Origin: Sporopachydermia quercuum
Lineage: Eukaryota
Assembly (NCBI GenBank): GCA_001599295.1
Contig: BCGN01000007.1
Location: 198,433 to 262,432, forward strand
DNA: 64,000 bases
Direction: 5' to 3'
Shown here: piece after piece, positions 40,872 to 58,100 of the stretch
Numbering within the stretch: position 1 is the first letter of the stretch
Layout of the letters: each line of letters opens with the position of its first letter
Made by a program: the position numbers and the translations under genes
The notes under the pieces: generated by a model
What the model was told of the DNA's origin: nothing
The model's input: the letters and a program-made list of their open reading frames with translations, nothing else
Databases searched by the model: none

Positions 40872-43800
40872 ATGGGTAAAAAGATTACTGGTAGACTACG
40901 AAGTCAGAAACAGCAGGCTAGGAAGACCTCATCATCAATAAACAATGACAATAGCAATAAACGGCAGAAAAAGCTATCGAAAGCTCAGCCTGTGAAGGCT
41001 CATCTGAATAGGAAAGTACTGGATGTATTTTCTCGTGCTGAAAAGTATGATGAACTCGAAAAAGAAGAGGCTGATGGCTATGATGAAGCAGAAGATGAAT
41101 TAATGTCAGAAGATGATAGGGGAAGAGTAGTTATCAAACGATCAATGTTAACAGGCAATGAAGACGATGATGAAGAAGAGGAACATGATTTTATTGACGA
41201 GGAAATTGACTCTGACGAAGCATTTGGTTCAGATGATGATTTTGAAGTTCTTGATTCAAAATTTGGTACGCTGAAACGTAGTGGTGATGATGATGAATAT
41301 AGTGACGAATATGGCGATAGTGTAGATGAGGATGAACTCCAACCATTATCAGCTGTGTGGGATTTAGATGATTTAGATGAAACCAAATCCAAGAAAAAGG
41401 AAGCTGTGGGTTCTAAAGGTCTTCTGGAAGGATTTTCTCTGAAAACAGGATTTGATGATAGTGATAATGAGAGTGAGAATAGCGATGACAGAGGTAGCGA
41501 TAACGATATTGATGAGAAGGATTATGGAGTAGTTTTAAATGATGATTTCAATGATGACGATTTCAATGATGATGATAATGACCTCAGTGAAGATAACACT
41601 CATAATTCTGATACAGAAGATTCCGATGACAATGATAGTAATTCGGACAGTAATTCCGATTCTGAAGAAAATCAACTGTCTGATGAAGATATATTCGCTG
41701 AGAATCAACATTTATCAGATGATAATGATGATGGGTCTGATGTTGATGATTTCCAAAGAGAAGAAAAGCTACAGAAGCTTGTCAATTCCATCTCATCAAA
41801 ACAAGGCGATCCTATGAAGAAGGTTAAGAAACAGCTTGAAAAATCAACTGTGCTAGAAAATGAATTGGCACTACCTATTAATGATGTAAATAAGTTCTCT
41901 ATCAAAGATATGATGGAATCTATTAATGATTCATCAGCTCTAAATTCAATGGTTCTACTGAAATCCAAATTGAAAGAAGGAAATGGAGACAGTTCTGCTG
42001 CCTCCAAAAGTAAGAAACTTGCTGTGCCGTTGCCAAAGAGAATTCAGGAAAGACACAATAGAACTGCTGCTTTAGATATTGCTAAAGAAGAAGTTGATAA
42101 ATGGCAGGATGTTGTATCTGAAAACAGAAAAGCTGAACATCTCCAGTTTCCTATAAATCCGAGTGTTAAATTAAATGAAACAACTGGTTTCACTTCAATT
42201 CTCAAACCAACTACCGAACTTGAAACAAGGGTCAGTGATATCTTAGCTAAGGGTAATTTGCTCAAAGAACAAGATGAGTACAAGTTTGAACAAGCAGCTG
42301 TTGAAAAACTGTCAAAGGAAGAACTGCAAAAGAGAACCAATGAACTGCGATTGATGAGAGAATTGATGTTCAGAGAAGAAAAGAAGGCTAGAAGAATCAA
42401 GAAAATCAAATCAAAGTCGTACCATAAAGTCCATAGAAAAGAAAGAGAAAGAATGAAAGAATTAGTAGAGGGTGAAGGTGAAGATGGAGAAGAACATGAT
42501 ATGCAACGAGCAAGAGAAAGGATGTCTTTGAAACATAAGAATAATAATAAGTGGGCGAAATCTATGATCAATAGCGGAATGTCAAAAGATGCTGATGCTC
42601 GGGGTGAATTAGAAGAAATGATGAGGAGATCTCAACAGTTACGTAGTAAGATTATGGATAATGATGACGATGCCGAAGGTGATAGTGATAATAGTAATGA
42701 GTATAGTAACAGGAATCTTGATAATGATGGTGATGAAACTTATACTAGTGTCAACAGTAAGAATGGTCAGATTTCTTCTATTGGTTTAAGTGAGTTTCAA
42801 AGCGATGATGATAGTATTAACAATAGTGATGCTGACAGTGACACTGGTGCTACTTTCAAGGTAGTTAATGCTGGTCGAAGAGTTGTTGCTCCGTCAGCAA
42901 AAGCCACCAACAATGCATATAAAGAAATTGCTTCGAAAGCATCAGAATTGTATCAAGAGGATAATGACAGGAAGCTGGAGAACAGACTGGTCAATAAGTT
43001 CAAAACTCGTGAACCAAAGATTAGGAGTCATAATGAAAGTGATAACGATAGAACTAAAGAAAATGGAATTAATGATGATAGAGAGTCAAACACTAGCTAT
43101 AAATCGGTTTCAGCTGTAGGATTATCTGCTGCTAGCACTGTGGATAGCAATAACTCTGATACTAATAACGATGAAGCAAACCCTTGGCTTGATGACAGTG
43201 ATGATGATAATAAAGCAAGAAAATCGACTTCTAGAGTCAGAATTGTCACAGAAAAGAGCAGTCAACAAGAAAAGTCTCTACAGAAGCAAAACAAGCTTGT
43301 TAAAAGGAAAAGATCAGCCAAAGAAATCGNCGAAGATGAAGCAGCTATGATTTCTCTGGATAATGTCATTAAAGTCAATGGTAATAACCATGATGACAGC
43401 GACAATGATACTGATAATGATAATGACTATGGAGCTGATCATGATGGGGAAATGGTTGAATTGAAGAACGTCAAATCGTTCAAACAAAAGGATTTAGTTA
43501 AACGAGCATTTGCTGGCGATGATGTTGTGGATGAGTTTTTGTCGGAAAAACGTCAAATCATTGAAGATGAAGGTGACAAGGAAATCGATGTTACTTTACC
43601 TGGTTGGGGTTCATGGGGAGGAGTTGGAATTGAATCTAAGAATAAGAAGAAGTTTGTCAAGAAGATAAAAGGTGTTAAGGAGAATAAGAGAAAAGACGCT
43701 AGATTGAAAGATGTCATTATTAATGAAAGAGTCAATAAGAAGAATAGTAAGTTCACTGTGTCTAATGTACCCCATCCATTTGAGACCAGGGAACAGTATG

Positions 43801-43928
43801 AAATGTCACTTAGAATGCCTATTGGAAATGAATGGATAAGCAGGGATACACATCAACGGACAGTTATGCCGAGAGTTACTGTTAAGACTGGTAAGGTTAT
43901 TGATCCCTTGAAGAATCCTTTTAAATAG
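40872..43928 (+). CDS. UTP14: SSU processome component Utp14
   Basis: Acidic N-terminus; KKLAVPLPKRIQERHNR, ELRLMRELMFREEKKARRIKKIKSKSYHK, RARERMSLKH, LPGWGSWGG and SLRMPIGNEW. Confidence 0.95.
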   Translation: MGKKITGRLRSQKQQARKTSSSINNDNSNKRQKKLSKAQPVKAHLNRKVLDVFSRAEKYDELEKEEADGYDEAEDELMSEDDRGRVVIKRSMLTGNEDDDEEEEHDFIDEEIDSDEAFGSDDDFEVLDSKFGTLKRSGDDDEYSDEYGDSVDEDELQPLSAVWDLDDLDETKSKKKEAVGSKGLLEGFSLKTGFDDSDNESENSDDRGSDNDIDEKDYGVVLNDDFNDDDFNDDDNDLSEDNTHNSDTEDSDDNDSNSDSNSDSEENQLSDEDIFAENQHLSDDNDDGSDVDDFQREEKLQKLVNSISSKQGDPMKKVKKQLEKSTVLENELALPINDVNKFSIKDMMESINDSSALNSMVLLKSKLKEGNGDSSAASKSKKLAVPLPKRIQERHNRTAALDIAKEEVDKWQDVVSENRKAEHLQFPINPSVKLNETTGFTSILKPTTELETRVSDILAKGNLLKEQDEYKFEQAAVEKLSKEELQKRTNELRLMRELMFREEKKARRIKKIKSKSYHKVHRKERERMKELVEGEGEDGEEHDMQRARERMSLKHKNNNKWAKSMINSGMSKDADARGELEEMMRRSQQLRSKIMDNDDDAEGDSDNSNEYSNRNLDNDGDETYTSVNSKNGQISSIGLSEFQSDDDSINNSDADSDTGATFKVVNAGRRVVAPSAKATNNAYKEIASKASELYQEDNDRKLENRLVNKFKTREPKIRSHNESDNDRTKENGINDDRESNTSYKSVSAVGLSAASTVDSNNSDTNNDEANPWLDDSDDDNKARKSTSRVRIVTEKSSQQEKSLQKQNKLVKRKRSAKEIXEDEAAMISLDNVIKVNGNNHDDSDNDTDNDNDYGADHDGEMVELKNVKSFKQKDLVKRAFAGDDVVDEFLSEKRQIIEDEGDKEIDVTLPGWGSWGGVGIESKNKKKFVKKIKGVKENKRKDARLKDVIINERVNKKNSKFTVSNVPHPFETREQYEMSLRMPIGNEWISRDTHQRTVMPRVTVKTGKVIDPLKNPFK

Positions 43929-44332
43929 GTTAGACGAACGGTAATGATGATGATGGGCATATGGATATATGTGCTTATATGGTCATATGAGGCATAGGAA
44001 GGAGGCTAAAGATGATTTATAGGGTATATATAGAGTTAGGGTTGAATGAAAAATGGTATCTATTAGATAAGAAAATGTACTACTTGGAAATATTCTTTTT
44101 TGGAAAATATGGTGTTAACATGATAGTTAAAACGATTTAAAGCAGATTCTCATGAAGAAGAGCTCACTCATTTATTAAGGATTGTTAGTAAGTTTATTAT
44201 ATTTTCTCTACAAGATTCAGCACTGGCTTAATCGTTTGATAACATTATCTACCTTTTATTTATTGGGTAGACTTCTTCTTACAAATAAGCAGCAATAGAG
44301 TAGAATTATACAAGTAAATTGAATAATTAAAC

Positions 44333-45476
44333 CTATAGAGCTTCTAATCTATCGTCAATTTCCCTTGAGGACAATTTTCTAAATCTTGGGCCACGAACAT
44401 CATCAACACCTTTAAATCCTAATAAATCATCATTTGGTTCACCAATGACAGCGATTTCAATTGTATCGCCGGTCATTTCTCCTTCTATAGTTTCCTTGAG
44501 TGTTAAAAGTGCTATATGAATAGCGTCTTCTAATTCAAGTTCTTCATTCCATCTTTTCTCTAAAAATGTCTTGGCTGATGCACTTCCTTTCCCTATTGCT
44601 GTTGCCTTCCAAGGAAAAAATGCTCCGCTTGGATCAACTTGATATAAACTGTATTTAGCATTATCGTCATAACCACCAACCAACAAACTGACACCATAAG
44701 GTCTAACACCACCAGATTGGGTAGCTTCCTGCATAATTCTAGCAATATCTTGAACTAAGATCTTGGTTGGAGGATATTCATTATAGATTCGTTTATAATT
44801 TGTATGAGATACTCTTCTTGCTGCATCAACTAAAATTCTATAATCTGGTCCCATACCAGAATAAACGGTTCCAATATCAGGAGTTATTAACGATGCTTTT
44901 GATAATGACTCGTTTTTGATTAATTGTGACGTTGATTTCTTTTCAGTAGCAAGCACAATACCATTAGTGGCTGATGATTGTCTTTCGTTAGTATTCGATG
45001 GAAGGTAAATATGTATCATGATTGACGATAAAAATCATAATCCAAGAAAAACCATTGGCGATGGTTGACCTTAATAGATCCATGTCTACATACCTTTGAT
45101 TCCTAGTGATACAACACCTTGATTGACAGCATTTAATGCGTATTCTATTTGAACTAGTTTTCCACTAAGGAAACGCTGTTAGTATTCTGATAGTATAATG
45201 TAGAGTAGCATGGTATAGAGCTTGAGGCAGCATGAAGTAATGTTCTCTTCTCTTCATTCCCAGGAAACAACAGTTGAAAGTAATTAATTAGATACAATCA
45301 CTCTTGAATTTCTGAATAAGTAGCACACTTTCATATATCAACAATCAATCATTCTGTTGACTCCATAGTACCATCTACTTTCCATCGACATACATTCTTC
45401 TCATTCACTACTATTTCTCTTTTATGACATACCTTGGTGAAAATGTAGTCAGTGAAAACGAATATCGATCAGCCAT
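44333..45476 (-). CDS. PRE8: 20S proteasome subunit alpha-2 (exons 45476-45433, 45164-45094, 44970-44333)
   Basis: Removing introns 45432-45165 and 45093-44971 (both GTATGT, TACTAAC, YAG) gives [50 protein letters not shown]; also TQSGGVRPYGVSLL. Confidence 0.96.
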
Positions 45477-46615
45477 TGTATATTTAATTCTATTTTAATT
45501 CAACTACAATTGATCCTGAACGGAAGAAAAAATCTTTAATGACGACAACTAATAACTTGGGTGATCTGTTGACCTGATCNACTCCATGGAGGTTCGCCTA
45601 CTAGACGCACAGTGTACCTATTGAAATTGAATAATCAAACTTGAATAGAAGCCACTTTGAGTTCAATTCTTATGGTAATCAAGACAAATTCACAGCTAAT
45701 TTGATTGCCCAGCTATTCTCTAATGGCCCAGAAGTTCTAATATCAAAGATGAATAAGCAAGAGTTGATTGCCGCTCCATTATTGCTAGTTAATGTATGTG
45801 TGCGTGCGTAGTAAATACAAGTGAAAGTTATGTATGGTGGCGCCTGGCAAGGATGGTTGACAATTGGAAAGAATACGGGGTGTCGGGAGACTGGAAATTG
45901 AAGAGCGGATTGAAAAGATTAAATTTTGATTATGTAATACAATAAAATAAAGGGAGTAGGTAGGGAAGGAGATGGGGAGGTAAATGGNGATGGAGTATGG
46001 AGCGAGGAGTCTATTTGGGTAGAGAGATTAAAGAAGTTTAATGTTTGCTTGTTGTTGTCGCTGTTGGAGGAATGGGAAAAAGTAAAGTGGGTTCTAGATG
46101 GTTTCTTCTAAAGCTTAAGAGATAAAGAGAGGTAATATAAACTGTTAGGTCCAGATTTAGTATGAATATGTATTAATATGTACAAATACGCATGTCCGAA
46201 GTTTACTAATCATAAATGAACAAGAAAAAATAATTAACAGAAAGAAGGAATAAAAGCGATTTGATTTGAAAGATAGTCATTAAACTGAGAGTTGAGTTTA
46301 AAAATAAAGACGAATCTGCTGCAGATATTTCCGGCACTTGACAATCTCCACTGCTGCCTTTGGTTCAGTGACCCACCAAAGTATTTGTCCACGCAAGTAA
46401 CTAATAGCTCAATATTACTTAGATATATCTGCTCTGAAATATCCCTTTTCTAATCTTTTGAAACTACGGTCAAAAGATCTCTATCACTTTACAATCAGTT
46501 TCTTCTATACACAATTAAGTGTTCTTATAATACAAAATTTACTAGCAAAACTTCCATGATCAGACTTCATTTCTGACACTCTCTAAAGATATATTATATC
46601 TCACACATTGAAAGC

Positions 46616-47505
46616 CTATGCAACTTCTTGCTTTGCCTTCAAATAGCTTTCTCTATCAAAATGTTCAGGTGACGGTGACCTTTCTTGATCCCCAGTTAAT
46701 TTACCTTGAATCTGCAGATACTTCTTCTGGGACAGTAATAAGTCTCTCAACAGTTCATTGCTTGGCCTTTTAGCGTGTATGAAATTGCATAATCCTCCTC
46801 TTGAACAGTCATTAACATCATGCTGCCTACAGCATGCTTCAACAAAATCAGTTACTGGACTTAGCTCACAATAAACAGGTCTACCATTATACCACCGAAT
46901 GTTGAAATTATCACAAGCATTCTGAGCGTTTTCTTCATATACAAATCGGCAATACACATTTCCCATTAAATCTATAGTAACACGTTAGTAATATGTTTAT
47001 AAGAAAAAGTAAAGAAAATAAAAAAAGAATATACAAATGCGCGACTTGGTCTAGCCGTCCAATAGCAGAACATTACAACATTAACTAAAACCAGTTGTAT
47101 CTCGTCATTTCAATACTTACGGTCATTGCTATTCTCGCACACAATAATCTCCTCAACTTGACCGAACTTGGCAGCTTCACAGAAGAAATCTTCATAGAAA
47201 GCTTCAAAATTACTGTCAATCTGTTCTTGGGTTAAATTATTATTAGGTATCAGAGCTGGGTTTTGATATAAATTTGGACAAATGATCGTTTGTGAGTATG
47301 TAGGCTTTACATGCTTCCTGGAACACTTATCCCCATGTCGACATGCACCTATTTTATAGTAAAAGGAGCTTTAAAGAGTGTTAGTACAGTGATTCAGCAG
47401 TAAACAATAAAAATAGAGTCTTCTCTGTCTCATAAATAATGAGATAACTTACCAATTTACTTTATCTAACTCAGTACCATAGATAGATGCTAAATAGTTT
47501 GCCAT
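46616..47505 (-). CDS. U2AF1: Splicing factor U2AF small subunit (U2AF35/U2AF23); exons 47505-47453, 47368-47121, 46971-46616
   Basis: [37 protein letters not shown] (ZnF1), UHM domain, CCRQHDVNDCSRGGLCNFIH (ZnF2). Introns 47452-47369 (GTAAGT/TACTAAC/AAG) and 47120-46972 (GTAAGT/TACTAAC/TAG). Confidence 0.95.
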
Positions 47506-48447
47506 CTCGTTGTGGTTATTATGTGATTGATGTAGTTGCAACTGGGATAGGTTTCAACCTGTTTCTAGTAATGATTCCNTTATACTTAGGGGTCTCTCCG
47601 TTAATTAGTAAAAACCAGCTAATAAATCGTTATTGTTTTTTCGTTTAGCAACAGAACTGTGTTATAAAATAGAACTGTAATACTGATAGCGATTAGTAAA
47701 AAGAATCCGAGAGGTGAGAAAGAGAAAAATAGGGAAGAAATAGCATGAAAGAGAATGTAGTGTTAATGATTATGTAATATTTAAAGCAGAGTAATTAGTG
47801 TCTTATACAAGAGGGTAGTCACAAGATGTCTTGAATTAATCGACCAGATATGCATATATTTGACAGGACTGGTTGGGAAAAAAAGATAATAGAAAAATGT
47901 AGCAAAGTCTATGNTTAGTGGAGCATCAAGCCAGGTTTCTCCATTTCTTTCGTTGTTCTCTTTTCTTTGGTGCATCTTATTACATGCCCCAATAGTGATT
48001 GCCTCCGGTACGCACTCTTGCAGATACTCGCACAGAGAACTGGCCNTCATCTTCAAAAACAGAGAAAAGAAGCTCTTTCTAAAGAACAATTAGATTTCAT
48101 AATTGCTGTTTCATACTATTGCATTTCATCATCTATAGTCAAATCAACCNGATTTATTTTGCTTGTATTTCCTTGATATCTGTAGATCCCTCTCAAGTAC
48201 CTCCCCCACTCCCAAGTCATTGAATCCCAATCTTGCATACTTCTGCATCATTTTACATAATCAATCTAACTCTATTTAGCACTGAATTCGCATTTCTTTC
48301 TTTCTATTTCCAATTAAATGACGGGACACTTTATATGTTTTGTTCGAAATAATTCGAGAATCTTACATCGAAACATTCTTCTATTACGGATAACTAGTTC
48401 AAATCCCTAGAAGCACTTTGTAACTTTGTTGTTCATACTCATAAATC

Positions 48448-49254
48448 ATGGGTGTACGTTATTTTCGCTAATCTCCGTTTCACTACTCAGATTACTAACA
48501 TTTCTTACAGAATGACGGAGGAACCATTCCTACAAGGAGTGAGCTTGTGAAACTAGGATCAAATGATGGGAAATTCAAAAAAGATACCTATGAAGCCAGA
48601 AAATTAAATAACGAGTCTCTGTGGACCACGTGTCAGTTATCTAACNAACCTTTAGTTCAACCTATAGTTTCCGATTACATGGGAAGGCTGTTCAATAAAG
48701 AAGCATTGATACAGTTGATTATAGATGATTCATTGTTCTCTGATACAAGAGAAGCGTTTAGTCATATCAAAAGCTTGAAAGACGTTGTTGAATTGCATAT
48801 TGAAGAAAAGAAACCTGGAGAATGGATTTGTCCAATAAGTCAAAAGGAAATAGGTAATAATGGTTCACGTTTCGTTTATATCGTGGGATGTGGTCACGTA
48901 TTTTCCAAGAAAGCTTTGAAGGAAATCAAAAGTAACCTATGTCCTGAGGTACGTTATTATATTTGTCACTGCCCTTAAAATGACTTAACATTATCTGTTA
49001 CTAACTTTCAGATATAGTGTGGAAAAGAGTACAGCAAAGATAATGTGATCATGATCAACAGTAATGACGAAGAAGAACTTGAAAAGCTTAGAAATCGGAA
49101 ACTGAAACTTGAGAAGGAAGGGTTCCATCATAGTTTAAAAAGACTGAAGAAAAGCTCAAAAAATAAAAAGAAGAATAAGCTTTTGGAAGATGAATCAACA
49201 AAAACAAAAGATGCTGACTCCTCAAAGGATAAAAGAATCAAAATCAAATCGTGA
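48448..49254 (+). CDS. RTF2: Rtf2 RING-like protein (exons 48448-48453, 48511-48948, 49018-49254)
   Basis: Spliced start MGNDGGTIPTRSELVK; WTTCQLS, MGRLFNKEALI, HIKSLKDVVEL, CGHVFS, CPE|CG and a Lys-rich tail. Introns 48454-48510 and 48949-49017 (both GTACGT, TACTAAC). Confidence 0.9.
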
Positions 49255-49454
49255 CTTTTACTTCTGTATATTGTATTATAACAACAAAATATTTCTGACA
49301 GCCAATTATTATAGTCCCTTTTGTAAAATAAATAATGTTCTTATTCCAATTAATATATACAAACACACTATGCACCACCAATTGTTTAATCAACGAATCA
49401 AACAACAAGTAGTCATCCTTTTTAATTNTGTTAAGAAAACCCTTTGCCCAACAA

Positions 49455-49842
49455 TCATTCCTTGTTATCTGCTTCTGGAAGAGATTCCAAAGGCTATAAT
49501 ATTCCTGTTAATTTTTTGCAATCAAAACCGGTGGGTTCCTCAAGTTGGAATTAATTCGAAGTGATCCTATTCTAATCATTTGTTCTACTTACAGAACTTG
49601 GAAGGTCGGTTTCTGGGTTAAAGACACCTTGTACCTCTCGAGCTTGTTTGTTCTTGTACAAAGTGTATCCTAATCCACCAAGCATATAAACTGCACAAAT
49701 ATAAGTTAGAATCGATGGTCTCACAAGTTCATAAAGACTGTCTTAAAGTAAACGTATTCATCTTACCTGTTGAACCAGCCAAAGCTAGAACAGTTAATCT
49801 ATGAGCAACATCTGCTACCTTTGAGTACCAAGGAGTTGCCAT
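49455..49842 (-). CDS. COX14: Cytochrome c oxidase assembly factor Cox14 (exons 49842-49767, 49690-49593, probable 49493-49455)
   Basis: Not in the ORF track. [39 protein letters not shown] closely resembles yeast Cox14. Intron 49766-49691 (GTAAGA, TTCTAAC, CAG). The second intron 49592-49494 is less certain; if unspliced the stop is at 49572. Confidence 0.85.
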
Positions 49843-50139
49843 TTTGAATCTGTATCTGACGGAAAAACAAAGCTGTACTACTACAAACGAGTCAAAATAT
49901 ATGATCCTTTAAATCATGGAACAGAAGTTTGATACAACTACTAAAATAGCACATGCAGCGTAAATATCAGGTTATTAAGATGCTCTTTTGTGAATGTCAA
50001 AATAAATGCAAAAGCTTTGTGATGGGTAAGTAAATGTATGAGATGAGACTTTATGTGTTTCCGGGTAAGCATTGGTATTTGTCTCATAACAGGGGATTTG
50101 TACTGTGAAACAAATGCATGCATAGTTGTGCATGTTAGT

Positions 50140-50207
50140 TTTCTCGTGTCAGTTGGCGCTTCGCTCTTTCCTTATTTCTTTCACTCCTACTTTCCTTCTT
50201 TCCTAAT
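50140..50207 (+). repeat. 68-bp direct repeat, left copy
   Basis: tttctcgtgtcagttggcgcttcgctctttccttatttctttcactcctactttccttctttcctaat matches 52891-52958 with 2 mismatches and one N. Confidence 0.95.
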
Positions 50208-50597
50208 GGCACCAAAAGTCTCAGCATGCAATGAACATCTACAAGCAAAATGCCACGCATCTGATATTGGGGCAAAAACAGTATGACAAGCCGCATACGG
50301 CTTGCCACCCTCAGCATCCATAAATTGATTTTCTTAAAATAACTAAAATAACCCTAATTGATAGAGCCATATAAGGCAGACGGTCTTGGCACCTCATGCA
50401 TGAAAAGAGCAGACTTCATTCAAAACAAGAAGGCTAAGAAGGCTTAGAAGCCGTCTTACCTTCAAAAATCTAATCAGACATAAACATGTCCTGCTTAATT
50501 TACTGCTTAATTTACGAATAGGGCCTTTAGTATTTAGTAACTATTTTTAAGTTTTTCAATTTTTCTTTTTCTTTTTTCTTTTTTCTTATCAAGTATA

Positions 50598-51554
50598 ATG
50601 TCTGGGTTCGTTTCTCTTAGAGCAGGAATTGCAGCTTCTATATTTCTGGCGTTGTACGTCGTTTATACTATCCTTTCAGCTATCATTGTATGTCGTGAAG
50701 GATGGAGAACTAGATGGACGTTTTTGTTTGCATTCGGGCTGATTCGTGTTGGTGGCCAGTTATGTGGAGTTGCATTTGCAAAGCTTGGTATTGAGCACTG
50801 GCAATGGTTGATTGCTTACTTGGTTCTTTCCGCTGAAGGTTACTTTACCTTGGTGCTTACATGTTTCCATTTTCTTTCGCAAGCCCAGACCGCCATATAT
50901 GGCACTTCTTGGATCAAACCCACGAGAAAGGAGCGGAAGGCTAAGAAGGAGGCCCTCAAGGCTGAGGGTAAGTCCTACCTGCAACGTGCGCGGGTGGATT
51001 TTTCTCTTGCCAACTGTTTCCATTGGTTATTGATTCCAGCAAATGCTATTCTCATTGCTGGTGGTACTATGCTTACGGGCATTGACCCTGTAGATTTAGC
51101 AAATCAGCAAGGTGAAGTTCATGCATCTAGGGGTTTAAGAGCTGCAGGTCAGGGTATCTTTTTAGCAGAAACTATTGCTTTGGTGTTTTTAACTTTATTC
51201 GTTTATACCAAGGAAAGAATAAGAATCTACGTAATGTATGCGTTATTCTTTGCATTCCCCTTCTTGATAGTCAGAGGTATTTTCGGCATCTTGTCTATCT
51301 TTTTGGATAAGATGAATTATTACTTAATTTCCAATTACGATGAAAGTGGGTTATCTGTCTACTTTATTGCTTGTGAATACTGTTTGGCTACACTTCCAGA
51401 GTTTGTTTCCGCATGTTCGTTGATTTCGGTTTACTACCACGACAGATATTATGGTTCTTTGAAAAAGAATGAGGTATGCTCCATTAATGAGGAAAGCCAT
51501 GCTGATGAGGAAAATGACGAGAAAGAAGTNATTACGAGAGTTCAACTAAGCTAA
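50598..51554 (+). CDS. Fungal integral membrane protein of unknown function (about 7 TM)
   Basis: 318-aa intronless ORF with multiple hydrophobic spans and motifs FGLIRVGGQLCGVAF, WLIAYLVLSAEGYF and PFLIVRGIFGILS. Confidence 0.8.
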   Translation: MSGFVSLRAGIAASIFLALYVVYTILSAIIVCREGWRTRWTFLFAFGLIRVGGQLCGVAFAKLGIEHWQWLIAYLVLSAEGYFTLVLTCFHFLSQAQTAIYGTSWIKPTRKERKAKKEALKAEGKSYLQRARVDFSLANCFHWLLIPANAILIAGGTMLTGIDPVDLANQQGEVHASRGLRAAGQGIFLAETIALVFLTLFVYTKERIRIYVMYALFFAFPFLIVRGIFGILSIFLDKMNYYLISNYDESGLSVYFIACEYCLATLPEFVSACSLISVYYHDRYYGSLKKNEVCSINEESHADEENDEKEXITRVQLS

Positions 51555-51869
51555 GAATATGAATATGGTAATAAGCGGGTGTGTAAACACGGAGATGAGC
51601 AGATGNTATTTCACCCGGAACAAGAAAACCAGCAGGCACTTAAGAACATTACTCCTGAAGATTATATAGGAACTATATAGGGAGCTGGTGTGAGTACGGA
51701 CTGCCATAACTTTCTACTGCCCGTTTGGTGTAATGTACTCCTGTAAATTAACGCCGAAGTGGGATATTATATACTTTTTGCAGGCAAAAGTTGAATCATC
51801 GGAAACACACAATAGAAGAAAGATGAATGAATGACGGATTAAATATGGTACTGTGAAATGAATGATGTG

Positions 51870-52420
51870 ATTGAATGTGGTTGCAGACCAGCTTCAAAGT
51901 GCTCGTTCAGCGGAGAGAGGGAGACCTATTTTTCGCTGGCGGCATTCTTAACAAAGTAAACCTATTTATTGCCTAGTTGGTTCAAAGAGAAATCTGGACA
52001 GGCTACGAACTTGTTAGAGTCCTTGAAGTAAGCAACGACTCCTTGATACCTAAATCAGTGGAAGCAGTAAGTGGGGGTTCTGAAGTTACAGGTTAGTAAT
52101 TTCGTTAACAACGAGACACTGGTGGTTGCAGGAACAATGGTAGAGTTTCAGCCAGCGTGGGCAAATTTACGATGTACTCGTCACTAGCCTTAATGGTACC
52201 AAAGAANGCAGCGTCGTCCAAGGCCAGGGTTAATTCGTAACTATCAAACTTGGCAAGATTACATTGAAAAATAATACTTTGATATCTTGATGGTGAACAA
52301 GCAAAGAAAACATGGGAGATTCAGGCTGGTGCATACACTCTCTTTTGAGTGGGTCAAGGCGGCCGAGATGCAGTGGCAAAGCAGCAAAGCAGGAGGAGGG
52401 TGGATGCTAAGGATTGTACA
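51870..52420 (-). pseudogene. Degraded secreted/cell-wall protein gene (Cwp1/PhiA-like)
   Basis: Minus-strand fragments across shifting frames: signal-like SLASTLLLLCCFATAS, QPESPMFSLLVHHQ, IFQCNLAKFDSYELTLALDDAAFFGTIKASDEYIVNLPT, NSTIVPATTSV, ASTDLGIKESLLT, FKDSNKFVACPD and VYFV. Several frameshifts and stops; no ATG at the signal-like segment. Confidence 0.6.
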
Positions 52421-52890
52421 GCTCAATCTTTTTCTATACTCCTATTATTTTTGAATGGTATATACGATGGGCAATATGATGCTGTCAACGAACAGAAACA
52501 GAGACCGGAAAGTCTACCAATTCTGTAGCAAGTTAACGGAATGTGGAAGAAACAAATGGATGTTCAATAAAGCAATTCTAAAACCCGAGAGGTAGAATTG
52601 CTTCTTTTGGCTACATACATGGCGCATCATCACAGTCGAATCAAAGTGTCGGAACGGCGAAACTTTTTNGGCTAATGTTGTGTTGCATCGAGACAATTGG
52701 AGTGGGAGGAACAAAGAAGAAAATTGTGTATAGAGAAGTGGACGACCCCATAGAAATAATTGGAAATAATTGGACTATACATGGAAAGACATTCGGCATC
52801 ATTATTTTTATGGTACTGCTGACAGATTGAATGGCGCACCTTCCAAACAAAATATCGAGCTTTTCGACGCTCAAGGCGATCAAGCACGAG

Positions 52891-52958
52891 TTTCTCTTGT
52901 CAATTGGCGCTTCGCTNTTTCCTTATTTCTTTCACTCCTACTTTCCTTCTTTCCTAAT
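52891..52958 (+). repeat. 68-bp direct repeat, right copy
   Basis: tttctcttgtcaattggcgcttcgctntttccttatttctttcactcctactttccttctttcctaat, offset 2751 bp from the left copy. Confidence 0.95.
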
Positions 52959-53289
52959 AAATAATACAAATACTGCACGATTTTATATTAGTAGCTGGGA
53001 TCCTACAATTATAATGAAAAAAATCATATTGGATTACATTCCTTTTCAAACCTAGAGTCAACTTGTCATGTTCCTTGAATCATCGATAGCACTCATCTCT
53101 TACCTGCATATTCCGTTTTTTCTTCCTGCATTCATTCTACTTGATAACTGATGGAAAATCAACAAAAATCAAATCATTTATTGCCTTACTTTCTTATATA
53201 AACTTTCGCTATACGCACAATACCTTCCTCCTATCATTTGGTTCATTTGCTTCACAACTGACATTCATTACTCATAGCCAGCTAAGCTC

Positions 53290-55463
53290 CTAAACCCTCA
53301 ATCCTGAGAAAAAGCCACGAGCCCATGAAGTCACTCCTGTCCACCAGTTCTGTAGATATCCATATACTGAAGAAACACCACCAGTTACAGTACTGGTGCT
53401 AAATAATGACTTTGGCGTCGTTCCAGTGAAGTAATTGTACTGTTCTTTTGCTAACCGGGCTAACTGCTCGTGGGTAGTCTCCTTGTGACGAATGCCAAAA
53501 GCTTCAAGGTATGATTGTAAGTCATTATCTGACCACGAACTAAAGTCAACATAATTGGAAGCAGTCTTCTTCACGTTATCATAGCCGTCTTTTAACTTAT
53601 TGGCTCCAGTCTGAGACGATTGAGCTAAAGTATCATAATAACTTTTTGCTTGATCTAACAGTTGAGTTCTTGTATCTCCCAAGTTTTCAACCTTTCCATT
53701 TAACCAATCCTTCAAATCATCACTGGTCCAACTGCTGAAATCCCAGCTGTTCATTTTAGGCGGAGTAAATTTATTCTCAGTTGCTAATCTTACTAAAGTA
53801 CGATGAGTTGCAAAATACGGGTATTGAACATCTCGAGCATCAAGGAAGGCTCTCAATTGCTTATTCGGCCATGTTTTAACAACGGATTCAAATGGAGCTG
53901 TAAATTTCACATCACTCAAACTATCAGCCACTGAATTTTTCCAATCGTAGAACCAGTTGTTGTACTTTTCTGCTAATTCAACTAGCTGTTCTTTAGTATA
54001 ATCAGCAGTTGAATCAACGGTTCCCCCGAAAGAACTAATGTACTCCTTTAAATCAGAATCACTCCAAGTATCAAAAGCTGTATTCTTGATTTCAGATCCG
54101 TAGCTAGCGGCATCATTATAAGTATCCTTTGCTTTTCCAGCAATATTAGACGCTTGGTTTTTGATTTCTGCTTTGCTGTCTTTCTCGGTGGCCTTTAACT
54201 TATTTTTCACTCTGGCAACTAACTCATCTCTTGTACCTTCAGCATTTTCTTTCTTCTCATTAAGCCACTTCTTCAAATCCCCTGTAGACCATGTGCCAAC
54301 ATAATAAGAAAACTTCTTGGAAGGATTGACAGGAATGTATTCATTTTCCTCCACTAATTCAATCAGTTTCTCCTTTGAATTCTGGGCCTCCTTTGGTATA
54401 TCTATATCTCTCATGTTCAAGAACTCCTTTAGTCTGTCAATAGACAAAGTATTCAAATCAGGTAGGAAGCTGCCTGAGCTTGGGAGATTATTACTCAGCC
54501 ATGAATGTATATCATCTTTCAATAGTTCAGAGTGTTCCTTAATTGATTTGGAATCAACTTTGGCTCCTTTGCTAATCAATCCATGAGATTTTGCCCATTT
54601 CTTGATACTTGAGTCAGACCAGCCGTCAAAAATTGAAGAGTCTTTGTTCTTGGTGAAATCAAGGAAGGAAAAATCATCGACTTTCAGCGATGGTAACCAG
54701 CTTTCCTTTTTATGACTTTCAGTAAGATAATCGCCCAAAGATTGATTCTGAATCAATCTCACAAATTCACTACGATCAGAGTCTTTGGCATACTTAATTT
54801 GATGCTTGTCTAACCAATTCTTCAAATCTTCTGTAGACCATGAGTTATACGCCCAACCAGAAGGATAGGAGCCTGATCCGTCATATTTATTTGAAAGTTT
54901 CTTGTAGTTTTTCTTAACAGTCTCAACTAATTCTGATCTGGTGTTAGCAGGTTTATATTTGATGCCAGCATCATCAAGAAGCTTCTTCAATTGAACATCA
55001 GACCAATCATTGAATAGCCATTGACTAACGTCATTATATGCCTTAGAAATTGCATTGCCTGACTTATCTATAGAGCTTTTGATTGAATTGATAATCTGGT
55101 CTTGATAAGTTTCGGGATAGTCTTTCCACTGAGCCGAGACTGATTTCCTGATTTCTTTCTCCAATTCCTTTGCATTCTTTTCGTTCAAACTGTTCCAAGT
55201 GCTTTGTACTTGTTTATCCAACTCAGCTTTTGAAGCTGCTGAAGAGTACTTGATATTGTTATCAGTAAGGAATCTATATATAAGTTAGTATGGCAAACTA
55301 GATAAGGAAGAAAGTGCGTATTTGCTCTGAACACTTACTGCTTCAATTCTTTTTCATTCCATCTTTGATAAGGATCTTTTTGCAAGCTGAAAGGCCATTG
55401 AAATGCTAAACTAATTATAGCATAGAATGCAATCAGCTGAATAATTAACAACTGCAGACGCAT
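53290..55463 (-). CDS. MSC1: Ish1/Msc1-family stress-responsive nuclear-envelope/ER lumen protein (exons 55463-55339, 55273-53290)
   Basis: Signal peptide MRLQLLIIQLIAFYAIISLA; intron 55338-55274 (GTAAGT, TACTAAC, TAG); many W-S-x-x-D-L-K-x-W/Y-L repeats (FNDWSDVQLKKLL, NSWSTEDLKNWL, FDTWSDSDLKEYI, FSSWSDNDLQSYL). Confidence 0.8.
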
Positions 55464-56480
55464 TGTTAAAGTGTTGTATTTAGATGTTTTGTTTGATCTA
55501 TAAGTTGAATATAATTGCTACTTGTTACAACGAATTATACTATTTATCAAATAGAATGTCCANTGATACATTAAATACTATAAACAACAGCATATACACA
55601 TAGTCAAACTACAAAAAGATGTTCTATAATTGTTCTAAAGAGAAGGAAAGCTCTTTTATATAAATTCCTCGATATTTTAGTTGTTTTCTCTTTCTTCCTG
55701 TTTCTTAAAATCAGAGTCAATTAACAAGTAATTCGTCATTTATTTGCAACTACAGCATACTAGGAACATTTAACCAATATTCACGTTTACTATTACATCA
55801 TAGGGTAGCTATGTGTGATATCTCAGGTGGAGATCTGGTGGAGACGAATAGCGATGAGATGTGATCAGTAAATTATGAGGCAAATATGGGATTTGAATTG
55901 AGTATAATTGATTTCAGTTATGACGTTAGAAACGGTCAGTTGTTTCTAACTGGTGTGGTTTCGGTGATGAGAATGAAGAGTAGGTAGAATAGAATAGGTG
56001 CAACAAGAGCAATTGCTATGAACATTTGCTCATTTCAATATTATTTGAATTCCTGTAGACAAGACATTTTTTGTATATTATCCTACAAAACTATTCAATT
56101 CCAATAATAATCAAAGGTATTATTAATTATGATCGATCTTTTCCTTTGATCTACTTTCCTTGTCCTTTCTTAATAAGTTTACTTCTTCTTTACCATTACA
56201 TCACTTAAAGTTTATTGATGAGCTAACGTTAATCATATGTAGAGTTCAAAATTTGACAGGGGACGGATTGGACGATAGTTACAACACGCAAAAATAAGCA
56301 ACCGAGTTGTCATATTTTTTGAGCATTCAATCACCATCGCTTCTATTGTACAAAAGTCTAAATATCAGACTCAAGCGGAATGGTGAATTCAATAGTTAAT
56401 GAGCAATTGATAGTAAGGAGTTCATGTTGAATCATCTGTGATGTGTTTTAGAGTTTTAGAGTTTTGGGGGACATTATAAG

Positions 56481-56512
56481 ATCCAATGAAGTAACTACTT
56501 ACTTCATTGGAT
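56481..56512. repeat. Perfect 14-bp inverted repeat with a 4-nt loop
   Basis: atccaatgaagtaa-ctac-ttacttcattggat. Confidence 0.9.
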
Positions 56513-58100
56513 TTGCCCTTCTGTATTTGGAGTTAAGGTTTAAATATTGAACTTTGTTTAAAGCTCGTGNATAAGTATAAGTAATACTCAATGGTTCGAC
56601 GGGGGANTGATAGTTATTGTTCTACGTGTAAATCGAGTGGATTTGGTAGATAACTACGGGAATTAGACTGAATAAGCACAATAATCGTGCTATGGACCAA
56701 ATTAATACTCCTGATGCTTCATGCGCCCTTTTGCTTGCCTGTTGAGAATACGATAACGATTGATTTCAAATGAGCGGGTTATTCACATACTAAGTCTTTC
56801 TATATAAGAAATTCTACACTACAATGAGGCATCCTGAAAATACACTTTGGAATTAATTTGCATTGGATTATTGAAAAATAATTCTGGAGCTTTTACTGGG
56901 ATAGTGACTTCAGAGGCCTTTGGCTTAGTTTAACGCCCCTTTCAACTGAGTTTCTTCTTGATTGATACCGAGGGAGCAAATAAGATAATTCTACTTCAAT
57001 CTGAAAATACAATCACTGCCTTCTTTTCAAGATTTGAAAACTGACTCTTCTATGATACAACAAGTTAAAATGCTTTTGATCCAATAGTTAGAGTATCTGG
57101 GGAAGATGTATGTTCAAGAAATATGATATAAATTCAATCTACTATTGGCCTCTTCGTATCAGTCAAGGACCTTCTAGCTGAACTNAGATTGCTTTCTAAT
57201 CTTGCTGGTTTCTAAAACTCCTTACCAATGGTTGAAAGTCAATGGTGAGTGGTAATTAGNCTCGTCGATCACTATAGATTTCTATGGATAATCACTCTCG
57301 TCTAGCCATTTTCATTAAAATGAATTAAGGTCTGAAGAAGCCACTGCCAGTATCCTATGAAGGTAAATTACATCTGAAACTTGCCTAAAGGAGACATCCC
57401 TTTTAAACTTTAAGATGACAGTAGGCTTTTCTTCCACTCGTGTATTTACGTTATGATACACTGCAATCTTATCCTATCTAACAAAAGCTATAAATTGCAA
57501 AATCAAAATATTCACAACACAAGATTATATTCTAGAATTCGCTGTGATTTTCCCCTTTTAATCCCTGACCTCTTGTATCCTTTTTTCCACTATCCTATCC
57601 TATGCATTTAGAATAAATCACTACGTAATCAAAGATTACATTATCACTAACTCATTTTACATTATTATCTAATCAATTATGCCCACCACTGTCCCATGAC
57701 ACACCCTCATATTATCCATGCTTCGAAGAAAATACCAATTTTTCAGCCTGCGCGTGTATTTTCATCCAAGTTCTGGCTGTACATTTCATTGTAAGATAAA
57801 CAACTAAACAACCAAATTCTATGGATGGATATTCGCCAAAACATAGTAATATTTTCAAGTTATTAAAACCTTGATTGGATTGATTTGCAAATCTGTGAAT
57901 ACCAGGCTCGTTTAATTGATTGCCTGCTCGTTGCATTGGTTACATCCTATGTCGTATATTGAACACCATCCAGCGAACACAACAGAAACATATTTGTATA
58001 CAATCAATCGGTTTCAGTGGTTTTCTATCAACAATTTTTTGCACCATTAGCTCAGAAGCAAAGCTCCAATCTCAACTGATATTTTCCATCTTGTATTACA

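Follow-up and report, generated by a model that had tools for sequence, protein, structure and literature searches.

Between COX14 and an MSC1-like gene of a budding yeast lies a 2.68-kb segment that appears to have come from a yeast with a different genetic code. It holds one intact gene (gene A) and the remnant of another (B), and it is bounded by two copies of a 68-nt direct repeat (R); we will refer to the segment and its repeats as the island. We put the probability at roughly 55% that a budding yeast with the standard code acquired this segment from a CUG-Ser yeast of the Serinales, near Dujonia or Kurtzmaniella (Debaryomycetaceae). We give about even odds to a more detailed statement, which is that a chromosomal two-gene cassette crossed the genetic-code boundary, that gene A survived with leucine-type CTG codons, and that R records an unusual route of entry. 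A sequence-only reading of this DNA had already proposed a foreign origin, which is now backed by the phylogeny (gene A falls within the Serinales) and by a clash between genetic codes. The proposed transfer across codes is new: in the best reading of codons and tree, CTG encodes leucine in the host, while gene A nests in the CUG-Ser Serinales.

Table 1. Features of the island and of the host genes on either side. Positions refer to the window, which is the whole 64-kb stretch of DNA that we analyzed.
Feature	Position	Strand	Basis or remarks
COX14, left host flank; two exons, intron at about 49691-49766	49572..49842	-	Promoter faces the island
R1, left 68-nt copy	50140..50207		+ strand pyrimidine-rich; last 55 nt identical to R2
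Gene A upstream region	50208..50597	+	GC 35.6%; T-rich tract directly 5' of the ATG; hairpin with a 7-bp stem at 50287-50304
Gene A, intact 318-codon ORF; predicted multi-pass membrane protein, DUF7702 (PF24800)	50598..51554	+	Pfam
Spacer, with the 3' ends of A and B on either side	51555..51952		Lies between A and B
Pseudogene B, remnant of a putative small secreted protein	51953..52388	-	tblastn with intact relatives
Former B upstream region	52389..52890	-	Position relative to the B homology; GC about 39%
R2, right 68-nt copy	52891..52958		Repeat search, blastn, shared unitig
MSC1-like, right host flank; Ish1 repeats and SAP domain	53290..55284	-	Pfam Ish1, 129 bits

Copy number and composition of the island

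A repeat search of the window found R as a single family with just two copies, whose starts are 2751 nt apart. The copies agree at 65 of the 67 called bases (R positions 7 and 13 differ, and position 27 of R2 is an N), and the near-identical direct repeats that the sequence-only reading had described lie exactly where it placed them. When the copies were compared by blastn with 200 nt of flanking sequence, the boundaries were sharp and the homology was exactly 68 nt long. At low stringency, the only related sequence in the window was the partner copy (E = 9e-27); all other matches had E >= 0.02. Together, the two copies bracket exactly the two-gene unit of A and B.

We compared sequencing depths in Logan contigs from three runs, which come from two studies; all three are marked as possible sources of this DNA and so are not fully independent. 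The comparison covered positions 51607-55562, or in other words the right junction. The island unitig (2756 nt) had depths of 34.5, 94.3, and 23.1 in the three runs, the MSC1 flank had depths of 34.7, 99.4, and 22.9, and the island-to-flank ratios were 0.99, 0.95, and 1.01. A 55-nt unitig that is common to R1 and R2 had depths of 66.4, 168.6, and 34.9. Since R has about twice the depth and the island has the depth of its flank, R is present exactly twice per genome and the island once. Within this range, the contigs (which drop rare forms) contained no joints, loose ends, empty-site contigs, or circle junctions.

Taken alone, the k=31 contigs are compatible with an integrated copy or with an empty site plus a one-copy circle. 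The assembly could be wrong if the true chromosome reads COX14-R-MSC1 and a free circular episome of 2751 bp was threaded into it via the shared 55 nt. The k=31 graph forms a loop, which agrees with either layout, and the island unitig starts and ends within R. However, the three depth ratios, from two studies, are unlikely for an episome, and the two differences between the copies of R are expected if both are fixed in the chromosome. Also, the island has no match to the ACS consensus of S. cerevisiae, which matches twice in the whole window and may not be the host's consensus. We consider such an artefact highly improbable. The sequence-only reading had raised the concern that R might be an assembly artefact or a dispersed host repeat, and neither fits two copies, a doubled depth for R, and an island at flank depth.

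In composition, the island is the outlier of the window. Its GC content is 40.5%, as compared to a window mean of 35.8% (standard deviation 1.65). It ranks second among 1224 sliding windows of 2819 nt, and the top ten all overlap it. Among the 17 ORFs that were measured, gene A has the highest GC3 (0.399, vs. 0.21-0.357 for the rest). The non-coding parts of the island have a GC content of 38.9% and a CpG frequency of 0.030, whereas 25.7 kb of the host's intergenic DNA gave 33.3% and 0.017. The GC content of the C. railenensis genome is given as 39.16% (PMC9753702). The sequence-only reading had counted GC in 60-nt lines (32/60 and 33/60 in the island, 15/60 in the flank), and all of these counts were exact when we repeated them. 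The difference stands in sliding-window GC and in GC3, and with CpG also above host values, the island is compositionally foreign, as had been proposed.

We found no transposase, integrase, or reverse transcriptase in the insert and no terminal inverted repeats or LTRs, and inverted repeats were at chance level. This agrees with the sequence-only reading, which had seen no transposase and no LTR; gene A is the only intact gene of the island. Scans of the 64-kb window for Rfam families and for tRNA genes gave no matches.

The two genes and their location in relatives

Gene A matches PF24800 with 43 bits (the cut-off is 27), and its product would have about 6 hydrophobic segments. We found 143 homologues, the best with 61% identity. 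(One homologue is labelled “RTM1” by one source; we did not adopt this label.) At columns that are at least 90% conserved, gene A has the consensus residue in 44 of 45 cases, which equals the median homologue. Because of these conserved columns, and because its CTG codons fit the host's code (see below), gene A is probably functional. Our best explanation is that selection has maintained it and that the host's own code is used to read it. A full-text literature search found no paper on DUF7702, and the retention of gene A after a transfer hints at a selectable function.

Judging from its sequence, B is a true pseudogene of a family of small secreted proteins. Intact relatives from L001, L006, P0199, and P0200 match it by tblastn with E values of 4e-14 to 1e-14, but the homology is divided among three reading frames and interrupted by in-frame stops, and it lacks both a start codon and a signal peptide. 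The damage amounts to at least 2 frameshifts and several stops. The family (19 representatives, no Pfam family) normally has an ORF of 170-290 amino acids, a signal peptide, and a conserved SPVFSLIAHH...FFGRIKA core, and the island's B departs from this norm. No significant match to B was found beyond 51953, and the spacer probably holds B's last third in unrecognizable form. When 12 frame pieces of the B half were searched against Pfam, none reached a curated cut-off, and 4 of the 12 had matches below it (E = 0.014-0.21). We also considered if B could be a degenerate inverted copy of A, and ruled this out: tblastn with 120 homologues of A gave no match better than E = 0.35. Overall, the sequence-only reading was right to describe B as a pseudogene (E is about 1e-14, but in three frames, with stops and without an ATG) and gene A as intact and conserved.

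The flanking genes are also as that reading had named them. Exon 1 of COX14 (25 amino acids) matches PF14880 with 29.7 bits (the cut-off is 25), and the Ish1 and SAP domains identify MSC1, whose frame is open for 664 codons, with a likely first exon at about 55335-55517. These two genes are presumably adjacent in S. cerevisiae as well (YML129C and YML128C). No paper was found in a full-text literature search for both of these names, and protein searches with MSC1 (374 or 664 amino acids) returned distant fungi only and no close yeasts.

For comparison, we used the 14 metagenome loci that carry a relative of gene A. Three distinct contigs (L001, which is the same as L002; L003; and L006) share the block RPA34(-) - A(+) - [B(-)] - MIR1-like(-) - RNase III-like(-). 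L003 has three copies of gene A and no B. Neither COX14 nor MSC1 was ever found beside the A/B unit in the 14 loci, and the other genes from 44000-58000 of the window had no match in any of them. Conversely, RPA34, MIR1, and RNase III had no match in the window. Since the A/B unit of the relatives sits between RPA34 and the MIR1-like gene, and in no case next to COX14 or MSC1, the island is a segment that was inserted between COX14 and MSC1, as the sequence-only reading had held.

That reading had further proposed that the segment was circularly permuted, from a donor with the order B(-)-R-A(+). No such order was seen in the relatives' loci. Instead, A(+) and B(-) are convergent neighbours in three distinct relatives (L001 or L002, L004, and L006), just as in the island, and in L001, L004, and L006 each gene has its own upstream region, which faces another gene (RPA34 or the MIR1-like gene). 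Because the relatives have the same convergent order, the island is colinear with the natural locus and is not circularly permuted.

Gene A phylogeny and the host's genetic code

We built a tree of gene A with 31 rows. Gene A of the window falls in the clade (P0003,(C. anglica,(window,(D. railenensis,P0004)))), with support of 99/97, and this clade lies within a 26-row group of Serinales (support 94/91). Both of the named sisters are Serinales, from the Debaryomycetaceae. Forcing gene A outside of the other 25 Serinales rows costs 24.6 lnL units (p = 0.007, AU test, with a group that was chosen by taxonomy but after the tree had been seen). In other words, the tree rejects the alternative and places gene A inside the Serinales, next to Dujonia railenensis and Kurtzmaniella. 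The nearest sampled relative is 60-61% identical, so that no closer donor was found, and all pairs within the clade are 50-60% identical. There is other incongruence or paralogy in this family: Millerozyma groups with Komagataella, with support of 99/92.

The host itself seems to lie outside of this clade. We examined 20 CTG sites, from 6 host genes, that could be aligned to solved homologues. At 13 of the 20 sites, CTG faces Leu, Ile, or Met; the other sites face Ser/Thr (3 sites), Ala (2), Ala/Ile (1), or Glu/Lys (1). At an extra CTG in MSC1, the other Ish1 units have Leu in 4 of 5 cases and Phe in 1 of 5. CTG accounts for 0.82% of 9614 host codons. It has been reported that CUG occurs at conserved leucine positions in 61.1% of cases in standard-code yeasts vs. 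2.4% in the CTG clade (PMC4986446). As controls, we used the A genes of the relatives. In six genes of the Serinales type (L001, L003 twice, L004, L006, and L007), 0 of 14 CTG codons were in columns dominated by Leu, while in the Dipodascales-like gene from L005, 2 of 2 were. By its CTG usage, which is the sole basis for the assignment, the host is best read as a standard-code yeast (CUG = Leu) and not as a member of the Serinales.

Two of the three CTG codons in gene A are in columns where most homologues have a similar residue (Leu in 113/119 and Leu/Ile/Val in 110/119), so these codons fit the host's code. CTG accounts for 3 of the 38 codons from the six-codon leucine box in gene A (7.9%), and for 9.5% in the host.

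This agreement with the host's code is what would be expected if A and B had long been native to this site, by vertical inheritance, with R as an unrelated local duplication or a shared promoter element. But the AU test rejects a position for gene A outside of the Serinales, and the A-B unit has a different and conserved location in three contigs. Furthermore, the island is the window's GC outlier, and R brackets exactly the two genes. We consider vertical inheritance to be very unlikely.

How the segment may have arrived

In our preferred explanation, the donor's RPA34 and MIR1-like carrier genes would have flanked a unit with the layout [A promoter - A(+) - B(-) - B promoter]. One copy would have entered, in one event, the intergenic DNA between the terminator of MSC1 and the promoter of COX14, and this event would have left R on both sides. 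R might be a duplicated host target, made by a staggered break or by a replication template switch that resumed 68 nt upstream. Alternatively, the incoming fragment may have come from a circle or a tandem array and slightly exceeded its 2751-bp unit, in which case R would be the overlap. After arrival, gene A would have been kept under selection and read by the host's code, and B would have decayed. We infer the direction of the transfer, its single-event nature, and the mechanism that generated R from the observations above.

The composition of R leans slightly towards that of the island and away from that of the host's intergenic DNA. The log-odds scores of the two copies are +1.9 and +2.45, values that only 2.8% and 1.7% of the host's 68-nt windows reach. 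Also, R carries 3 CpG, as do 11% of host 68-nt windows vs. 29% of island ones. This island-like composition weakens the variant with a duplicated target. When we compared R and the non-coding parts of the island to the 14 metagenome loci by blastn, we found low-complexity or chance-level matches only (best E = 0.001).

Island-like scores and CpG content for R are also what the full model of the sequence-only reading would predict. It proposed that a 2751-bp circle, with B and A divergent around R, integrated with 68 nt of terminal redundancy; R would be incoming DNA, and the empty site would have no R. The length of the unit with one R is self-consistent, and there is a documented case in yeast of foreign DNA that spread by way of circles (PMC3053389). 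However, a circle is not needed to explain a gene order that three relatives share, and a fragment from a tandem array in the donor would yield identical redundancy. The island is single-copy and lacks an ACS match, and the documented region, as it is described in PMC3053389, has no flanking repeats. We consider the circle model in full quite unlikely.

The apparent timing of events is uneven. R has diverged at just 2 of 67 sites, yet gene A has gained two leucine-type CTG codons and B is heavily decayed. By our own estimate, the timings of R, A, and B can be reconciled only by a neutral divergence of about 5% since the segment arrived. If the acquisition was older, at an earlier time or another site, then the copy between the repeats could be a later relocation or dispersed duplication within the genome, by way of a 2751-bp extrachromosomal circle or a template switch during replication. 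This would suit the low divergence of R, the decay of B, and the CTG share of gene A, which already resembles the host's. Relatives do have tandem or multi-copy A genes (three in L003, and in C. subhashii a pair with neighbouring locus tags). On the other hand, the neutral parts of the island still have a GC content of 38.9-42.9%, vs. 33.3% in host intergenic DNA, which argues against long residence. The island's depth equals that of its flank, so there is no second identical copy. We view a later move as unlikely, and prefer a single entry at the present site.

How does the island compare to known systems? The target-site duplications of transposable elements are mostly 2-20 nt. R resembles them in forming direct repeats immediately outside of the insert, but it is 68 nt long, and the insert lacks a transposase, terminal inverted repeats, and LTRs. 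In replication-based duplication, a distant segment of the same genome is copied without any mobile element, and a template switch can cause a short part of the target to be copied again. Replication that is induced by microhomology or microsatellites is described as giving dispersed segmental duplications (PMC3053389). The island similarly involves no mobile element, and its site is a polypyrimidine tract; unlike the products of replication-based duplication, its DNA looks foreign.

Documented transfers between yeasts are mainly large, recent regions in domesticated Saccharomyces. The sequence-only reading had compared the island to region B of wine strains of S. cerevisiae, a 17-kb region with 5 genes from Zygosaccharomyces bailii (Galeote et al. 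2011, PMC3053389). According to that account, region B occurs as several copies whose gene orders are circularly permuted, has a functional (tested) ARS, and has repeat-free junctions with 2-3 nt of microhomology, which points to NHEJ. The comparison is a loose one. Region B is, and the island appears to be, a small multi-gene segment from another yeast at a non-homologous site. Neither has a transposase, and circular intermediates have been suggested for both. Unlike region B as described there, the island is one 2.7-kb copy that is colinear with its relatives, with no permutation and no ACS match, it has a 68-nt repeat at both junctions, and its apparent donor has a different genetic code. 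Another yeast-to-yeast transfer is region C of wine yeasts (Marsit et al. 2015, PMC4476156), which measures 158 kb and came from Torulaspora microellipsoides; the recipient then lost genes and retained useful ones. But as reported in PMC4476156, region C is far larger than the island and recent, its donor is nearly identical, and both partners are Saccharomycetaceae with the standard code.

The island would be a small and clean case of transfer, outside of the model yeasts; its two junctions are intact, and its relatives belong to a codon-reassigned clade. It bears on two questions: is CUG reassignment a barrier to nuclear gene flow, and by what means does foreign DNA integrate when no mobile element takes part? 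Because of the 68-nt repeat, the locus lends itself to experiments, and loss of the insert by recombination between the two copies of R is conceivable. If our reading is correct, then the island would be a natural case of nuclear genes that passed between yeasts with different genetic codes, and of naked DNA that integrated without a mobile element.

Surroundings and composition of the island

The island (the segment bracketed by two copies of the 68-nt repeat R) lies between two genes of the host yeast. COX14 has one intron, and its first exon scores 29.7 bits (cut-off 25); MSC1, whose frame is open for 664 codons, encodes an Ish1/SAP protein. Since the two genes are on the minus strand, the island has the terminator of MSC1 on one side and the promoter of COX14 on the other. 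A short intron separates a likely first exon of MSC1 from the open frame, and the gene is far longer than its 374-aa ATG-to-stop ORF implies.

Presumably, COX14 and MSC1 are also adjacent in S. cerevisiae (YML129C/YML128C); a full-text literature search for these two names together gave no match. UTP14 and a proteasome subunit gene are convergent in the window, which we take to be the arrangement of YML093W/YML092C. This pair, along with COQ5, COX14, and MSC1, suggests that the window shares microsynteny with the left arm of S. cerevisiae chromosome XIII. To our knowledge, S. cerevisiae lacks both an Rtf2 gene and a gene for the small U2AF subunit. The window has Rtf2 and a U2AF-like ORF, so the host appears to be a less reduced yeast.

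Features of the window and of related loci
Feature	Position	Strand	Description
UTP14, then proteasome alpha-type subunit gene	40872-45019	+, then -	Convergent
U2AF-like ORF	46616-46966		CCCH zinc-finger ORF resembling the small U2AF subunit
Rtf2	48449-49254		RING-finger gene; 5' sites GTACGT and branch points TACTAAC in each of its two introns
R, first copy	50140-50207		
Hairpin	50287-50304		Perfect 7-bp stem, 4-nt loop, arms CAAGCCG/CGGCTTG; 80 nt inside the island's left end, in its most GC-rich non-coding stretch
Gene A	50598-51554	+	Intact 318-codon ORF; family DUF7702 (43 bits, cut-off 27)
B (tblastx match)	52159-52331	-	Pseudogene
R, second copy	52891-52958		
MSC1 candidate first exon	55335-55517	-	Start resembles a signal or membrane anchor
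Tandem A copies	L003:5247-10984		Three copies
B family members	L001:11806-12471; L006:7908-8522		

The sequence-only reading had counted 32/60 and 33/60 GC on lines within the island and 15/60 on a flanking line; these counts are exact, and the difference persists when it is computed more broadly. The island is 40.5% GC, whereas sliding windows of equal length average 35.8% (sd 1.65). It ranks 2nd of 1224 such windows, and the top ten all overlap it. Among 17 ORFs, GC3 is highest in gene A (0.399; the others range from 0.21 to 0.357). The island's non-coding DNA is 38.9% GC with a CpG frequency of 0.030, versus 33.3% and 0.017 for 25.7 kb of host intergenic DNA. An excerpt of PMC9753702 gives 39.16% GC for the genome of C. 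railenensis, which is near the island's value.

The two copies of R are exactly where the sequence-only reading had placed them, according to both a repeat search and blastn. They start 2751 nt apart and agree at 65 of 67 called bases (the mismatches are at positions 7 and 13, and position 27 of the second copy is N). When each copy with 200-nt flanks was compared to the whole window by low-stringency blastn, the sole match was the partner copy (E = 9e-27). The match has sharp edges and a length of exactly 68 nt, and there is no third copy in the 64 kb of the window.

We also used public sequencing of one organism (three runs from two studies), which contains 99% of sampled words of 47500-55500. 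Each of these runs may be a source of this DNA, which limits their independence. The contig comparison covers 51607-55562. In all three runs, the island is a single 2756-nt unitig (k = 31) with both ends within R. Its depth was 34.5, 94.3, and 23.1, versus 34.7, 99.4, and 22.9 for the MSC1 flank, and the 55 nt common to both copies of R form a separate unitig at 66.4, 168.6, and 34.9. These depths imply that R is present just twice in the genome, rather than being a dispersed repeat, and that the island is present once. A graph with k = 31 cannot by itself separate an integrated copy from an empty site plus a one-copy circle, but the island-to-flank ratios (0.99, 0.95, and 1.01) make an episome unlikely, and we give very little credence to either a free episome or an assembly artefact.

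The window contains 43 scattered single Ns, including 11 within 47.5-53 kb; five are in the island (51530, 51606, 52207, 52669, and 52917). Each of the three runs gives a Logan unitig that is unbroken across four of these five (51530 is outside the stretch compared), which means that, in these data, those four at least are not heterozygous.

The island is not a transposon. As the sequence-only reading had noted for transposases and LTRs, none was found, and neither was a TIR, by repeat search and by comparing 12 frame pieces from the right half to Pfam. No piece reached a curated family cut-off; 4 of the 12 had weaker matches (E = 0.014-0.21).

The A-B unit and its location in other yeasts

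Gene A encodes about six hydrophobic segments and has 143 homologues (E <= 0.001), of which the most similar are from Candida railenensis (61% identity) and C. anglica (57%). It matches the consensus at 44 of the 45 columns that are conserved at >=90%, the same as the median homologue, and this conservation indicates that A is under constraint, in line with the earlier suggestion of selection on A. A full-text literature search for DUF7702 found no paper.

We identified B from its context, by comparing 14 metagenome loci that encode relatives of A to the window with tblastx. In L001 (identical to L002) and L006, B matches a gene on the strand opposite to A, immediately downstream of it. Its intact relatives are proteins of 204-221 aa with a signal-peptide-like start. 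With these as queries, the homology in the window is significant (E = 4e-14 to 1e-14), but it spans three reading frames with in-frame stops, a start codon is missing, and the last third can no longer be recognised. In other words, B was rightly called a pseudogene, and it decayed while A stayed open. We rejected the idea that the right half is a decayed copy of A, as tblastn with 120 homologues of A gave no match there better than E = 0.35.

The B family (which also includes the protein rows P0199-P0214) has just 19 representatives among 1.84 billion proteins and no Pfam family. Its members are small secreted proteins, rich in N-glycosylation sites, in which the signal peptide is followed by a KR site; their conserved core is SPVFSLIAHH...FFGRIKA...LN(I/L)P. 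Look-alikes in the atlas carry the label "cell wall", which is only a lead.

In L001 and L006, the gene order is RPA34(-), A(+), B(-), MIR1-like carrier(-), and RNase III-like(-). L003 has the same flanking genes with tandem copies of A and without B, so the locus seems prone to tandem amplification in some Serinales (the yeast order that reads CUG as Ser). The short contig L004 has A(+) and then B(-). In the tree of A, these contigs fall in different Serinales lineages (Suhomyces-like, Scheffersomyces/Spathaspora-like, and Metschnikowia/Clavispora-like). COX14, MSC1, Rtf2, and the window's proteasome gene had no match in any of the 14 loci, and RPA34, MIR1, and RNase III had none within the window. 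Because the unit's neighbours differ, we conclude that the island arose by insertion of a copy of a unit that is conserved at another location. The insertion proposed by the sequence-only reading thus stands, and its foreign origin is likely, but its circular permutation is not supported: A and B have the same convergent order in the relatives, which makes the island colinear with the natural locus and permutation unnecessary. The proposed donor order, B(-)-R-A(+), is absent among the loci examined.

Phylogeny of gene A and the host's genetic code

In a tree of 31 A proteins, the window's copy belongs to a clade (P0003,(C. anglica,(window,(Dujonia railenensis,P0004)))) with support of 99/97*, where P0003 and P0004 are protein rows. 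This clade lies within a 26-row Serinales group (94/91). If the window's copy is kept out of a group formed by the other 25 rows, the log-likelihood falls by 24.6 units (p-AU = 0.007); this group, defined by taxonomy, was chosen after the tree was seen. The two named sisters belong to the Debaryomycetaceae, within the Serinales. Since all pairs within the clade are 50-60% identical, and no potential donor is closer than 61%, the donor lineage is unsampled. Elsewhere in the tree, the homologue from Millerozyma farinosa (Serinales) groups with Komagataella pastoris (Pichiales; 99/92*), apart from all other rows of the Serinales. This second incongruence could be either an old paralogue or another transfer.

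We had assumed that the host was a CUG-Ser yeast like the relatives of A, but its CTG codons contradict this. An alignment to solved homologues covers 20 CTG sites; they come from six host genes (the MEP ammonium transporter, an OYE-type reductase, GABA transaminase, UTP14, COQ5, and SET2). Leu, Ile, or Met is found opposite 13 of the 20; the others face Ala/Ile (1), Ser/Thr (3), Ala (2), or Glu/Lys (1). Within the internal repeats of MSC1, one CTG is at a position where other units have Leu (4/5) or Phe (1/5). CTG accounts for 0.82% of 9614 host codons and for 9.5% of the six-codon Leu box. As a benchmark, an excerpt of Muhlhausen and Kollmar 2014 (PMC4986446) reports that 61.1% of CUG codons are at conserved Leu positions in standard-code yeasts, versus 2.4% in the CTG clade. 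As a control within family A, Leu-dominated columns contain 0 of 14 CTG codons from six Serinales-type genes (from L001, L003 (two), L004, L006, and L007) and 2 of 2 from the Dipodascales-like L005. Judging from these codon positions, CUG most likely stands for Leu in the host.

Gene A itself has three CTG codons, and two are in columns with Leu in 113 of 119 homologues and with Leu, Ile, or Val in 110 of 119. The alignment suits these two only when they are read with the host's code, and their origin probably postdates arrival. Although the host most likely reads CTG as Leu, the tree places A inside the Serinales. Given this placement, the unit's different conserved location in other contigs, and the outlying GC of the island, vertical inheritance is highly improbable. 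For transfer across the CTG-clade code boundary, a full-text literature search turned up no nuclear case among the ten best matches listed, as far as the excerpts show.

Origin of the repeat and timing of the likely transfer

R might be host DNA that was copied twice, either when a break with ends staggered by 68 nt was filled in, or when replication switched template to the incoming DNA and returned 68 nt upstream. (R is a polypyrimidine tract, which may be the kind of sequence where forks stall.) Alternatively, R might be incoming DNA, if the fragment was 68 nt longer than one 2751-bp unit and its ends overlapped. Such a fragment could derive from a concatemer of a circle, as the sequence-only reading had it, or from a tandem array in the donor, which is plausible because arrays of A exist, as in L003. 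By Markov log-odds, R scores with the island, and just 1.7-2.8% of host intergenic 68-nt windows have an island-like score; R has 3 CpG, a count found in 11% of host windows and 29% of island windows. This composition hints that R arrived with the insert, without deciding it. It is also a hint in favour of the full circle model, but given the island's colinearity, we think that model is improbable.

The changes do not all point to the same age. The copies of R differ at 2 of 67 sites, whereas A gained two Leu-type CTG codons, and B carries several stops and at least two frameshifts and has lost its start. By a rough estimate, these changes are compatible only at about 5% neutral divergence since arrival. 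An older acquisition, with the R-bounded copy arising by a later move within the genome, would account for the mismatch; we consider this unlikely, though less so than the circle. Gene conversion that kept the copies of R alike is an alternative account. Overall, we favor transfer from a Serinales donor to a standard-code host with R formed in a single event (probability of roughly 0.55).

The closest known case is region B of wine yeasts, which is foreign yeast DNA without a mobile element and for which a circular intermediate has been proposed. According to the portion of PMC3053389 at hand, region B is multi-copy and permuted, its ARS was tested, and its junctions are of the NHEJ type, with 2-3 nt of microhomology and no repeats. 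In contrast, the island is a single colinear copy bracketed by 68 nt, so the likeness to that circle-mediated, Zygosaccharomyces-derived region does not extend to membership in its type. The S. cerevisiae ACS, which may not be the host's consensus, has no match in the island. The island also differs from region B in that its donor and host apparently use different genetic codes, and we file it as a probable yeast-to-yeast segment transfer outside the region B type.
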